Assembly: GCA_964016885.1 (NCBI GenBank)
Contig: OZ024742.1
Span: forward strand, 229,400,001 to 229,464,000
Origin: Eledone cirrhosa
Lineage: Eukaryota
Length of the DNA: 64,000 nucleotides
Reading direction: 5' to 3'
Shown here: positions 785 through 59,381 of the stretch, piece after piece
Layout: each line of letters begins with the position of its first letter
Position numbering within the stretch: position 1 is the first letter of the stretch
Position numbers and translations under genes: made by a program
Notes under the pieces: model-generated
What the model was told of the DNA's origin: nothing
What the model saw: only the letters and a program-made list of their open reading frames with translations
The model's database searches: none

Positions 785-1170
785 AAAGAATCAGAGTTGC
801 ATCATATACATATTTAATTACATATTACGTATGTTTCCCTGCCGATCAGCTCGAGGAACGATCTAGTTATGATCGAACCTGACTCTGTAATCGGAAGCGC
901 CTCGGAGACTCACTCTCAGACATGAGTCTACATGTTAAAACATATCTCAGGAGCTTCCCAATCCAGAGTCAGGTACGATCATTAATAGATCGTTCTTCAA
1001 GTGGATCGATTGTAATATGCAATTAAACATGTAATATCAAATTAAATATGTATATGATGCAACACTGATTCTTTATTCCCTTATATATTAATTATTGATA
1101 CTCTGCTCCCCAAGAGCATCCAATGCTCATTCGGCATACTGCCTATGGACGAAATTAACTTCCACCTTAA
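785..1170. mobile_element. Old fold-back element (diverged inverted arms ~785-930 / ~945-1074 plus ~95-bp one-sided tail) between microsatellites
   Basis: AAAGAATCAGAGTTGCATCATATACATATTTAATT is mirrored by AATTAAATATGTATATGATGCAACACTGATTCTTT, and GAACGATCTA..GATCGAACCTGACTCTG by CAGAGTCAGGTACGATC..TAGATCGTTC. Same layout as the PLE-derived inverted insertions nearby; no HHR found. Confidence 0.55.
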
Positions 1171-1371
1171 TATATATATATATATATATATATATATATA
1201 TATATATATATATATATATATATATATATATATATATATATATATATATATATATATATATATAGAAAATTGAGGTTGGTAATGGCACATGGAATATATA
1301 AGAGACAGAATACTTTTTTGTGAAAAAACATATAATTTTATAAGGTAAGGAAATAATAAAGGGTATAAAAA

Positions 1372-1413
1372 ATGACCGGTTTCGATGGGCCTGCAAAAGC
1401 CATCTTTTCAAAT
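1372..1413 (-). ncRNA. Minimal hammerhead-like motif (variant core) in left pLTR
   Basis: Minus strand TTGAAAA-GATGGC ttttgcag GCCCATC-GAAA-CCGG-TC, with palindromic CCGG loop III and weak stem I. Confidence 0.55.
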
Positions 1414-2044
1414 GTTGATTAATATTAAGAAAAATTAATAATAAGAAGAGTTAAAATTTGAGATTTGAAAATTCAAGTATAAAATTCATTGTGGGATTTC
1501 ATAGTAGTTTTCATCTTGGTAGCAGCTCGTTGACTGCTGTGTGCCTTTCTGGTAGTGAATGAGATGTTATTTGGGGGTGTGGGTTATTTTATAAAGGTCA
1601 AATTTAGCAATGGCCAGATGGCCAGCTGCTGGTCAGTGAGGGGGTGGAAGCAATATACATACATATATCTTCCTGTGCTCGGTAGGAGAGGGGAGATTTA
1701 TAGAAACGGATTTAGTGCACTTACACCTATATATACACACATACCTTCATCCACACATACATACATATACAGATACATACACAGATATATATATATATAT
1801 ATATATATATATATACATATACACACATACATACACACACACATACATATACATACACACATACACACACACATATATGTACATACACACACATATATAC
1901 ACACACACACATATATATACATACACATACATCCAGATGCACACATACATACACACACACACACACACATATATATATATATGTGTACATACACATATAT
2001 ACACACATATACATACACATATATATACACACACCCACACACAC

Positions 2045-3126
2045 CTCAAAGCCAATTGGAAAAGATATCTAGACGACTGCTTTATCCTATGGCAAGAAGA
2101 CATGAACTCACTTACTATGTTTAAAAACATGATAAACAACATAGATAATAACATACAATTCACAATGGAATCCAATCCCAAGGAATTAGCCTTCTTGGAT
2201 ATTCTCATCTCTGTAATAGACGGGAAATTAGATACAGATATATTCTATAAACCCACAGATTCCAAGCAATACCTCTTTTTCACATCAAGTCACCCAAAAC
2301 ATACAAAACTTAACATTCCTTACAATTTGGCCAAACGTATATGTACCATAGTATCAGATCCACCTAAACGGGAGCAAAGACTAAAGGAACTAAAAGACAC
2401 CCTAATCTTAAGAGCCTTTCCACTTGAAATAATCAACAATGGAATAGACAGGGCAAAACACCTAAATCCCCATCAACTTAACAATCCAAAACAGAAAACC
2501 ACACTCAACACCCTGCCATATGTATCCACTTTCAACCCCAGAAATACCGAAATGTTTGATCACCTACACAAAAACTCCCCATCCTACTTAAAGATGTAAA
2601 AATGAAGTCTATTCTTGAAACACACAAGATCCTTAAAAGTAAAAGACAACCCAAATCACTAAAACGCATTCTCACTGGACCAAATATACCCAAACCGATC
2701 CTCAACCCTACAGTTACTAAATGTGGTAGAACAAACTGTGGAACGTGCCTCTACCTCACTGAAGGACACAAATTTACATTTAAAGATGGCCAAACATTTA
2801 GAGTAAAAAACAATTTCACCTGCAACTCGGAGAACTTGATTTACGTAATAACTTGCGGTGGGTGCAAACACAACTACATAGGACAGACGGGCACCTCATT
2901 ACGCAAAAGAATGACCATCCACCGCCAACAAATCCGGGACGCTAGCACAAGAAAAATCCCCTTGAGCAGCCATATTGCGAACTGCGCAGGAATGACACTA
3001 CCCAACTTTAAAATCTTCCCCTTCTAAAAGTGCTCAGATTCGTTCACACAGCAACAAAGAATAAACAAAGAAAATCTATTCCTTAACAAATTTAAACCAA
3101 AACTAAACGGGTTATCACCCCAATAG
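2045..3126 (+). pseudogene. PLE RT C-terminus/thumb + Cys linker + GIY-YIG endonuclease (frameshift ~2597, in-frame stop 3025-3027)
   Basis: WKRYLDDCF, FLDI, YKPTDSKQYLFFTSSHPKH; CGRTNCGTC linker; LIYVITCGGCKHNYIGQT..LRKRMTIHR. Frame continues past the stop as KCSDSFTQQQRINKENLFLNKFKPKLN. Confidence 0.9.
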
Positions 3127-4180
3127 AATTGTCATAAAATATAAACACACATACGCACGGAGTGACAGATATATGTGTTTGTATGTGTGCATGTATATAA
3201 TTATCACTACTATTAAAGACCAGAGACCAATTCTGTAGAATCAGGTTTATTCGTTGACAGACCATGCCTTTGTGTGACCAACACATCCATGTTAAACCCT
3301 GCACGTGCACACACATATATCTATATATATATGCGCACACAGAATTCACCACTGTCGGTTGCGGGACCCAATCTACATGAAGAACTCAATGTGATCAGAA
3401 TGACTTGTATTTTAATTTCACTGCCCTAACTTCTTATATTATAGAAAAAATATATGTGTATGTATGTATATATATATATTTGGAGGCCATTTCTCTGTGT
3501 GTGGGTGTATGTATGTGTATATATGTGTGTGTGTGTGTATGTGTGTGCATGTGGATGTATGTATTGTGTGTGCGTGTGTGTGTGTGTGTGTGTGTGTATG
3601 TGTGTATCTGGATGTATGCGTATGTGTATATATATATGTGTGTGTGTGTGTGTGTGTGTATGTATGTGTGTATCTGGATGTATGTGTATGTATATATATG
3701 TGTGTGTGTGTATATATATATATATGTGTGTATGTGCATATATGTGTGTGTGTATGTGTGTATGTATATGTATGTGTGTGTGTATGTATGTGTGTGTATA
3801 TGTATATATATATATATGTGTATGTATATGTATGTATGTGTGGATGAAGGTATGTGTGTATATATAGGTGTAAGTGCACTAAATCCCTTTCTATCAATCT
3901 CCCCTCTCCTACCGAGCACAGGAAGATATATGTATGTATATTGCTTCCACCCCCTCACTGACCAGCAGCTGGCCATCTGGCCATTGCTAAATTTGACCTT
4001 TATAAAATAACCCACACCCCCAAATAACTTCTCATTCACTACCAGAAAGGCACACATCAGTCAACGAGCTGCTACCAAGATGAAAACTACTATGAAATCC
4101 CACAATGAATTTTATACTCGAATTTTCAAATCTCAAATTTTAACTCTTCTTATTACTAATTTTTCTTAATATTAATCAAC

Positions 4181-4222
4181 ATTTGAAAAGATGGCTTTTG
4201 CAGACCCAGCGAAACCGGTCAT
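4181..4222 (+). ncRNA. Minimal hammerhead-like motif (variant core) in right pLTR
   Basis: ATTTGAAAAGATGGCTTTTGCAGACCCAGCGAAACCGGTCAT; mirror of 1372-1413 with two stem II mutations. Confidence 0.45.
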
Positions 4223-57362: not shown

Positions 57363-57420
57363 TTCATTCTGATGATTGAAAGCAACATTTTTTGCTTTTA
57401 AGAAACCACTGGTAAATGGA
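57363..57420 (+). ncRNA. Type I hammerhead in microsatellite-rich pLTR-like segment (~56500-57508, which has an internal inverted repeat)
   Basis: TTCATT-CTGATGA-TTGAAAGCAA..TTGCTTTTAA-GAAACC act GGTA-AATGGA. Confidence 0.8.
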
Positions 57421-57630
57421 ATAATTGCCTTATGTTGTTTATTACATAACTATTAAGCTCTGTTACTTACATAGAGCACTCTTTTTTCCTGGACCTTTCC
57501 GACGGAATTACTTCACATATATATATATATATATATATATATATATACATACACACACACACACACACACAGATATATATATATACACATATGTATATAC
57601 ACATATATATATATACACATATATATATAT

Positions 57631-58180
57631 AATATATTAACAAATGGAAACTATATTTATAAAACCATATTTATTTTATTATACAGATTTCAAGGGCCAC
57701 CAAGGCAAATTATGGTGCGCTTTCATCAGATAAAATACATTTCATCAGATAGAATACATTTTTTTCTTTCTTTTTTCACTCTCTCTCACATATCACCTTC
57801 TTCCAACAGTTTAATTTAAATAAACCGTTATCTTTTCAACATTTCGGACACTCATTTGCATACTCAATCATGATTTTCTATCAGCCTCAATAAATGTAAT
57901 ATATCCAGGAAGCTCCAACCGTTAAGGTTGTCTTTTTTTCAGGGTATGTCAATATTTATTAATAAAACAAATCTGCATTGCATTTTATCTGATGAAAGCG
58001 CACCATAATTTGCCTTGGTGGCCCTTGAAATATGTATAATAAAATAAATATGGTTTTATAAGTATAGTTTCCATTTGTTAATATATTGTATATTTACTCC
58101 ACTAAATTGTTGAGTGCTTTATATCAGTTATAAAAATGTTTAAGCTTGTTGAATCCCAACAAATTAAATATAACCTCTGC
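57631..58180. mobile_element. Inverted HHR element (arms 57631-57740 / 57980-58087, tail to 58180)
   Basis: HHR 57983-58044(+) TTTTAT-CTGATGA-AAGcGCACCA..TGGTGgCCCTT-GAAAT atgt ATA-ATAAAA and mirror 57674-57735(-). Confidence 0.85.
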
Positions 58181-58759
58181 ATATATATATATATATATAT
58201 ATATATATATATATATATATATGTATATATATATATGTGTATATATATATGTGTATATATATATATGTGTGTATATATATATATGTGTATATATATATAT
58301 GTGTATATATATATATATGTGTATATATATATGTGTATATATATATATATGTGTATATATATATGTGTATATATATGTGTATATATATATGTTTATATGT
58401 ATATATATGTGTATATGTATATATATATATGTATATATGTATATATATATATATATATATGTATATATGTATATATATATATATATATATATATATATAT
58501 ATATATATATATATATATATATATATATGTATATATGTATATATATATGTATATATGTATATATATATATATGTATATGTATATACATGTATATATATAT
58601 ATATATATATATATGTATATATATATGTATATGTATATATATATAGTTATATATGTATACATATATATATATATATATATATATATATATATATATATAT
58701 ATATATATATATATATATATATATATATGTGTGTGTGTGCGTGTGTGTGTCAGCTCAAC

Positions 58760-59035
58760 TGAGCTCCTGAAAAAACTTCTGATCAACGACCTCGAATATG
58801 TGCTTCACACGAGACGCATGCACTGGTAAGGCCATATCGAGCGCAGTGAGTGCTAGATCAGCAGAGTGGTGAAAGTCGATCCAGGAGGCAGTAGAGGCCC
58901 AGTAAGACCAAAAAGTACTTTCATGGAGGACGTCCGTTAGGATCGAGCTAGGCTTGGGCTAGCCCAAGTGGGACCGTTGGAGAGAAACGCATGAAACAGG
59001 ACGTTGCGAAGCGCTGTCAGCCAAGACCCACTCTT
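58760..59035 (+). mobile_element. Degenerate RTE-like LINE C-terminal fragment
   Basis: RRMHW*GHIER..GSRGPVRPKST resembles RRLRWxGHVxR..GxRxxGRPK. Confidence 0.55.
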
Positions 59036-59265
59036 ACTTAAGGAATAATTGTGTCCTGCATAATAAAAAGCTGGATGATGATGATATAAATATATATATA
59101 TATATATAGTAATAATAATAAAATTGAAGACTAAAATCCAAAGAGGGCTCGATAAGGGTGAAACCAGCGATTCTTTGCTTAAACTTTAATCTGTTATTTA
59201 ATAAATATATATATATATATATATATATATATATATATATATATATATATATATATATATACATA

Positions 59266-59381
59266 CGTAGGTCCCGGGTTGAGTCGGGGATAACCACAGT
59301 AAGTAAGGTACTCAGTAAGTAAGGTGCTTCCTGAAGATTTCATCTGAATGAAACAGTACTAGTCCTGTAGAAGCTCCTTCT
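59266..59381. mobile_element. Mini HHR element: inverted tail joined to forward HHR (59326-59374)
   Basis: GCTTC-CTGAAGA-tTTC atct GAAt-GAAA CAG tactagtc CTG TA-GAAGC; the left part is the reverse complement of the 32746-32786 tail. Confidence 0.8.

Follow-up and report, generated by a model that had tools for sequence, protein, structure and literature searches.

Penelope-like elements (PLEs) that carry an endonuclease (EN) leave insertions of an unusual build. In the passages concerned, Craig et al. 2021 (PMC8557442) describe a 5'-truncated copy joined in inverted orientation, partial tandems, a tail that is often at one end only and a bias toward (TA)n targets, and call the cause undefined; Arkhipova et al. 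2013 (PMC3846280) describe head-to-head palindromic joints, for which antisense self-priming was proposed. The sections of Frangieh et al. 2024 (PMC11167929) on integration report a PLE protein, predicted to form a dimer, that cuts and extends both target strands and uses two adjacent internal start sites whose spacing equals the tail. We analyzed a stretch of 64,000 nucleotides of the Eledone cirrhosa genome, hereafter the window (positions 229400001-229464000 of contig C3), together with genome-wide searches of the 3.0-Gb assembly, and found that insertions of this kind pair one tail-less end with one tailed end as a near-absolute rule. In LINE-1 twin priming, a single RNA is primed by two target ends, and the product is a 5' inversion with little homology at its joint; the position of the second site varies, and the two pieces have hardly any overlap. 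Here, in contrast, both sites are fixed and 35-135 nt apart, so that the arms usually duplicate the same sequence. The published units of EN-bearing PLEs, as far as these sources describe them, show the same head-to-head inversion, one-sided tail, TA target, hammerhead cores, tandem units and trans-mobilised non-coding copies, although with tails of 30-40 bp compared to up to 135 bp here.

An earlier reading of the window, made from the letters alone (the sequence-only reading), had listed 12 inverted inserts. Self-comparison of the window recovered, at all 12 places and at nearly the same coordinates, a pair of inverted arms that face outward, with additional sequence on one of the two sides. 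The arms measure 11 bp to 2642 bp, matching the 11 bp to 2.6 kb given before, and are 74-100% identical. TA-rich simple repeat lies on at least one side of all 12 inserts and on both sides of 10, which bears out the statement that they always sit in microsatellite DNA, mostly (TA)n; at the inserts at 785 and 32610, (GA)n separates the TA tract from the left end. The claim that at least 12 independent inserts share the architecture stands as far as the inverted pairs are concerned, all of which are real, but the insert at 45625 is single-copy and those at 15728 and 17036 belong to a single family, so that the 12 inserts represent at most 10 PLE-type families. Genome searches placed 11 of the 12 in multi-copy families. 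Three carry PLE coding sequence of Hydra type or Neptune type (17036, 1264 and 47252) and the remaining family inserts are non-coding. We conclude that these eleven are copies of repeat families, most likely all spread by PLEs; coding pieces, tandem units and end structure support the Penelope-like origin proposed earlier. Terminal repeats of miniature inverted-repeat transposable elements (MITEs) or other DNA transposons were considered and rejected, as arm lengths run from 11 bp to 4.8 kb and the ends are asymmetric.

The largest of these inserts is a young Hydra-type PLE. Its tail-less arm of 5084 bp (17036-22119, minus strand) contains the 3' two thirds of an open reading frame (ORF, 22137-20434) and is joined to a tailed arm (22120-24760, plus strand) that is 99.9% identical to 17036-19677. 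A 135-bp tail follows (24761-24895, plus strand), equal to the first bases after the pseudo-long terminal repeat (pLTR) in the tandem unit of this family. The ORF lies on the minus strand, so that the 3' end of the left arm points left, and the right arm points right; the outward-facing 3' ends of the sequence-only reading thus agree with the coding strand.

We took a census of ends, in which N stands for tail-less and T for tailed. With exact patterns for the 17036 family, 520 ends genome-wide stop at the tail-less position and pass into TATA, and in 628 the sequence continues with the tail; reversed-pattern controls gave 0. Arm ends within families are therefore fixed rather than random, with hundreds of sites per position. 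The first 100 matches of each end pattern were listed, which covered all of contig C1, where 53 N matches and 59 read-through matches form 73 clusters; all 73 were read as sequence and their classes counted by hand. Every one of the 49 two-ended inversions was N/T, with no T/T and no N/N. The remaining clusters comprised 18 one-armed copies, one insertion interrupted by a later insert and five that assembly gaps or the fetch limit left incomplete. If the two ends chose their start sites independently, at most 50% of the pairs would be mixed, against the 49/49 observed (binomial p=1.8e-15). The earlier description of the inverted pair as the dominant outcome across families is thus established for the family counted here, in which 49 of the 68 resolved C1 insertions are two-ended and 19 are not.

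The same pairing was seen in other families (hand counts, with window copies included for the families at 57631, 47252 and 28996). The pattern for the 1264 family is unable to distinguish N from T ends and stretches were read instead: among 20 stretches around rows of its first 100, all 12 resolved cases were N/T. The 57631 family gave 22 N/T and 1 T/T at 30 loci, the 28996 family 17 N/T, 1 T/T and 2 unclear at 30 loci, and the 47252 family 11 N/T, 1 unclear and 18 without a partner within 1.5 kb. Summed over the five families, 111 of 113 resolved two-ended insertions are mixed, 2 are both-tailed and none is both-tail-less. Copies from the 32610 and 45136 families that happened to lie in the loci read were N/T too. 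Coordinate pairing had suggested two more both-tailed pairs, but these turned out to be junctions inside tandems whose far end is tail-less. One insertion has four full tandem units between its tail-less and its tailed end.

External T ends enter ATATAT directly in 73 of 75 rows (some loci counted twice), compared to a background of 5.6% (989/17806). Since the 5' ends of one-armed copies are also often joined to (TA)n, these data suggest that the repeat was present before insertion. Tail-less ends finishing in CT often run on as (CT)n before the TA tract (L242, L245, L248, L250, L154, L157, L159), which looks like the last dinucleotide of the element reiterated at priming, or expanded later. 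New insertions also land in the TA tract beside older ones, giving clusters (L091-L094 at 170.42-170.46 Mb of contig C2, L241, L266).

The two arms of an insertion are close kin. In 21 N/T insertions whose arms exceed 330 bp, edit distances over at most 1485 bases were taken from the shorter arm to its partner and to 23-38 further arms. Its own partner was the strict nearest arm in 20 of the 21 and tied in one, although several subfamilies coexist. In the 17036 element of the window, the shorter arm is 1 edit from its partner and at least 28 from any other arm compared, and at L045 a private change is common to both arms. Later gene conversion appears an unlikely cause of this likeness, because the arms of the old 785 insert are 74-77% alike, below their 82-84% identity to other copies.

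Arm lengths and joints were also informative. In 10 of the 49 C1 insertions the T arm stops in the tail or within 14 nt of it, twice as a stub of 14-15 nt; as the arms then overlap barely or not at all, the T arm cannot have been copied from the N arm. Of the 49, 26 have the longer arm on the N side, 14 have arms of equal length and 9 have the longer arm on the T side (hand count; 26 versus 9, p=0.006). Joints are mostly blunt, or share 1-3 bases, or contain short fillers; at L095 both 4.8-kb arms end at an identical non-palindromic base with a 7-nt filler between them. Family-wide, 5' truncations pile up at position -204 (24556 in the window, plus strand), at the 5' edge of hammerhead stem I and likely at a capped RNA start. 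Patterns that demanded A or T in the final position counted 381 ends that depart from the element at precisely this base, versus 2206 that continue with the templated G. The following base, among the 100 rows listed, is C in 40, A in 30 and T in 30, and at least 11 of the C are templated by neither arm. An untemplated C would fit copying of the cap at the RNA 5' end, which is suggestive only.

On balance we favor a model in which a single RNA serves both cut strands, each priming at one of two fixed start sites, after which the two cDNAs are end-joined. The GIY-YIG endonuclease would cut both strands of (TA)n, as shown in vitro for another PLE. Of the two 3' ends, one would then prime at the inner site and one at the end of the tail; the observed end positions lie 35-135 bases apart and each match 2-3 TA-like bases. 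The inner primer would lead and the outer one trail, which could account for the tail-less arm being longer more often. Both cDNAs would stop by truncation or run off the 5' end of the RNA, often at the presumed capped start at -204. Their ends, which meet nearly blunt with an overlap of 0-3 bases or short fillers, would be joined and filled in by a repair pathway, and failure of one primer would leave a one-armed copy. Such twin priming on one RNA is the simplest account of our counts of pairing, kinship and joints taken together with the start sites and predicted dimer of PMC11167929. It retains the earlier proposal that both ends of a break prime cDNA and are joined at their 5' truncations, with cutting, priming and repair as presumed steps. 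It drops the word "independently", which is contradicted by the wholly mixed C1 pairs and by the kinship of partner arms. In its general form, the model would make PLE integration an obligately asymmetric twin priming, with one dimer, one RNA and a different fixed start site for each strand, which would at one stroke produce the inversion of the pLTR, the tail on one side only and the capped-end palindromes, and would also mobilise tRNA-headed, ribozyme-free passengers; we judge this generalization to have about an even chance of being correct.

The in vitro system closest to this model, Poseidon_Ac (PMC11167929), has the same two start sites spaced by the tail, cutting and extension of both strands, an AT-rich target and a predicted dimer; it belongs to a different clade, and in the parts concerned that study did not pair both strands of a single event or treat inversions. 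The passages of PMC8557442 and PMC3846280 that bear on this build use the words "often" or "optional" and contain no pairing counts, arm comparison or single-RNA model. We found no printed pairing count or rule and no twin-priming or single-RNA model for PLEs in the searchable literature, although subscription reviews may hold one. The architecture itself (inversion, one-sided tail, (TA)n bias) is already published; what the analysis adds are new family members and the near-absolute pairing rule into which the counts turn a tail "often on one side", with both arms tied to one template. The rule argues against independent priming and pure self-priming, supplies the existing in vitro system with a sharp test, and makes testable the origin of inverted tailed insertions, the question that PMC8557442, in the part concerned, leaves undefined. 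It accounts, moreover, for a class of palindromes that is very common in this genome and that should be kept out of annotations as hairpin RNA or MITE.

Several points weigh against the model. Two insertions, L117 and L204, are both-tailed, and the family samples are biased toward young copies and exact patterns. No empty target site was found, and no joint skipping the 54809 insert was present in four contig sets, a result that carries no information, since their contigs break at the repeats. The T arm is longer in 9 of the 49 C1 insertions, where the trailing enzyme would have to displace or pass the first cDNA. For most of the C bases at -204, 22 or more, the partner arm may have been the template (14 CATT and 8 CTGAAG junctions among the 100 listed). 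Two RNAs from the same source locus are possible and would give matching arms too. For the non-coding families, PLE dependence is judged from common end structure and hammerhead cores rather than from a protein. Finally, both strands used the same start sites in vitro with no difference reported in the relevant part of PMC11167929, which leaves the asymmetry without a shown biochemical basis.

The arm likeness just described would also be expected if one cDNA folded back and copied itself, or if antisense RNA self-primed, as proposed in the passage concerned of PMC3846280, with a short second cDNA or the same template giving the tail. Consistent with this, 14 of 49 junctions are symmetric and 8 of 100 listed hot-spot junctions (AAT-C-TGAAG) are compatible with a small hairpin. 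We nevertheless consider it unlikely, since the arms overlap hardly or not at all in 10 of 49 insertions, since in 26 of 49 the long unique part belongs to the tail-less arm, from whose cDNA a tail cannot be obtained, and since many of the joints are either blunt (L105, L106, L097) or bridged by fillers (L095, L096). Fold-back may produce a subset of the insertions, in addition to two priming events.

We hold it to be quite improbable that both ends prime at the tail end and that the endonuclease or host repair then strips the tail from one side during resolution. Both genomic end points match the RT (reverse transcriptase) start sites reported in vitro for the anole element (PMC11167929, in the part concerned), the tail-less end has the same TA-like target overlap as the tailed end, and insertions whose tailed arm is a mere tail stub offer no homology to resolve. 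Tail removal would, however, account directly for the strict one-sidedness, and PMC8557442, in the passage concerned, ascribes the tail to EN-mediated resolution.

A third possibility is that two separate protein-RNA particles, perhaps from one active locus, prime the two ends independently. Arm lengths are often very different, one-armed copies of both kinds occur on C1 (10 tailed, 9 tail-less) and the two both-tailed insertions exist, as such a process would allow. Yet it predicts mixed pairs in half of the cases at most, against 111 mixed, 2 both-tailed and 0 both-tail-less, and does not explain why the partner is nearest in 20 of 21 comparisons despite coexisting subfamilies; independent priming is largely refuted by these counts, and we give the two-particle scheme very little credence. 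That the palindromes stem from chimeric or fold-back reads, or from later gene conversion, is hardly credible: some arms are 99.9-100% identical and two loci, 45625-45928 and 31003-31216, look like local fold-backs, but each family keeps its fixed ends across hundreds of sites, the divergence of the old 785 arms argues against ongoing conversion, and Illumina reads of another sample contain a strand switch at 15921 (16 reads, 4 starts), while in short-read contigs N ends pass to (TA)n and the tail is joined to an N arm, evidence that holds for the family rather than for this locus.

The element behind the 17036 insert could be followed in a tandem array on C2 (170.42-170.45 Mb), where the complete unit is 6060 bp with an 830-codon open frame. 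The tail corresponds to the first 135 bases after the pLTR and runs on into the body at internal tandem junctions; in the 1264 family, likewise, the tail consists of the bases following the pLTR in tandem units. The frame has YRDD and YIGAT motifs, that is, a PLE-type RT and a GIY-YIG endonuclease in a single ORF, together with RWR at 54, DKT at 132, CNCRNKTNC at 690, CRLC at 788 and CNH at 816, and without CCHH cysteines. By these motifs the family appears to match the Hydra clade as PMC8557442 describes it in the passage concerned, sharing RWR, DKT, the CxCX5C linker, the lack of CCHH, CxxC and CxH around E and N, the hammerhead core and the (TA)n target. Members of that clade are there usually <3 kb, a descriptive trait rather than a defining motif, whereas the 17036 unit reaches its 6060 bp owing to a microsatellite-rich 3' region and has an unusually built stem II (below). 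Pfam gave no match on the Hydra-type ORF. The 47248-48057 insert, a Hydra-like 3' fragment, has a tail-less arm (47248-47868, minus strand) coding the end of a GIY-YIG-type domain similar to the 17036 protein, a tailed arm (47869-47993) and a tail (47994-48057). The sequence-only reading had called families here Naiad-like, which does not hold: the 17036 ORF and this fragment have a C-terminal GIY-YIG domain with Hydra-clade motifs, no Naiad-type ORF (N-terminal EN before RT) was found, and all coding pieces found have the EN at the 3' end. Two more, diverged Hydra-type endonuclease fragments, beyond the earlier list, lie at 12697-13492 and 55682-56494 (minus strand).

The Neptune-type insert at 1264-4367 consists of a tail-less arm (1264-2043, minus strand) and a tailed arm (2044-4367, plus strand) with its tail at ~4333-4367. 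The tailed arm codes, on the plus strand, a broken 3' part of the RT (2060-2596), including the thumb, and a GIY-YIG EN (2560-3024) with a sub-threshold Pfam match (E=1.4e-4); Neptune-type features are the linker CGRTNCGTC and YVITCGGCKHNYIGQT. This agrees with the earlier label "Neptune-like", although Nematis also has the CGRTNCGTC-type linker (PMC8557442, in the part concerned), so that the linker does not separate the two. PLE coding identity was assigned by motifs for the 17036, 1264 and 47252 inserts only.

A type I hammerhead motif is predicted at 24554-24706 (plus strand), with stem I formed by 24554-24562 and 24698-24706, core CTGAAGA and GAAA at 24686, in line with the hammerhead core consensus; a mirror copy lies in the left arm. 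Its stem II (24563-24689) is 116 nt, compared to 11-36 nt in other families here. A strict hammerhead core lies near the arm end in 6 of the 12 inserts (17036, 28996, 32610, 45136, 47252, 57631) and was not found in those at 785, 1264, 15728 (where the junction cuts it), 16543, 45625 and 54809. Stems were confirmed for the 17036, 45136 and 57631 families, whose ribozymes are predicted. Among the best 150 of 361 Rfam rows of the window there was no hammerhead family, but only microsatellite-driven miRNA matches and two tRNA matches.

Three of the non-coding hammerhead-core inserts share the left-to-right order of tail-less arm, tailed arm and tail: 28996-30718 (tail-less arm 28996-29131, minus strand; tailed end to 30718 with the tail at ~30625-30718), the short 32606-32797 (tail-less arm ~32606-32660, minus strand; tailed arm from ~32661; tail ~32720-32797) and 57622-58180 (tail-less arm from 57622, minus strand; tailed arm to 58096; tail 58097-58180). 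In the insert at 45136-45555, from a young hammerhead-core family, the tail (45136-45225) and tailed arm face left, and 45226-45555 is a perfect 330-bp palindrome. The 15729-16228 insert is a short copy of the 17036 family (tail-less arm 15729-15921, minus strand; tailed arm 15947-16093; tail 16094-16228, plus strand). At 16544-16644, in an abundant non-coding family found at 42 other loci, an 11-bp tail-less stub (minus strand) is joined to a tailed end (plus strand); comparable short stubs occur in L008 and L024. The old non-coding insert at 778-1170 has a tail-less arm at ~778-929 (minus strand), a tailed arm at ~930-1092 and a tail at ~1093-1170 (plus strand); its family gave 1904 first-look candidates, and the 15 inverted partner matches listed all stop at query position 134-163 of 231, short of the full tail in every case.

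Non-autonomous animal non-LTR retrozymes derived from PLE pLTRs have been described (bioRxiv 10.64898/2026.07.22.740005), and in the part concerned they are the same kind of short, non-coding, hammerhead-bearing pLTR-like units, sometimes tandem. The insert at 54809-55243 belongs to a family that is tandem too, but has a tRNA-like part and no hammerhead core that we could find. Its left arm (54809-54996, minus strand), which includes a tRNA-Ser(GGA)-like part (54872-54944, minus strand) and ends ~35 nt short of the usual tail-less end of the family, faces a tailed arm (55012-55243). The family has a 290-bp tandem unit with PLE-type paired ends, and its 5' truncations cluster at unit positions 60-65, near the tRNA start at 53, whereas a tRNA-derived SINE would have a tRNA-like head that Pol III transcribes starting at the 5' edge of this head. 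The family is a candidate tRNA-headed passenger of PLEs. Sequence of this family is also present at 53991-54249 and forms long head-to-tail arrays on C28 at ~19.63-19.72 Mb (L181-L191, L195, L199, L200), and related sequence occurs in sequencing runs of organisms B and C.

The insert at 45625-45928 (first listed as 45625-45922) is a single-copy 51-bp inverted duplication around TA-rich DNA, of unproven mobile status. A genome search, which skips common words, gave two matches, both its own arms; because of this and its resemblance to the local fold-back at 31003-31216 it was dropped from the mobile set and is probably a local fold-back itself. At both loci ~50 bp of unique DNA are inverted-duplicated across a TA-rich spacer, which looks like (TA)n fold-back, a second source of palindromes. 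Elsewhere in the window, a LINE-type (long interspersed nuclear element) RT with a zf-RVT domain by Pfam lies at 33734-35752 (minus strand), with a broken relative, recognized by eye, at 7214-8722 (plus strand). Three arrays lie in the segment 35931-41860: a 3.6-kb GC-rich tandem array of 27-bp/9-bp repeats, one rich in (CTA) and a 51-bp array. Both strands have long open frames of low complexity there, and the segment could be a repetitive exon or satellite.

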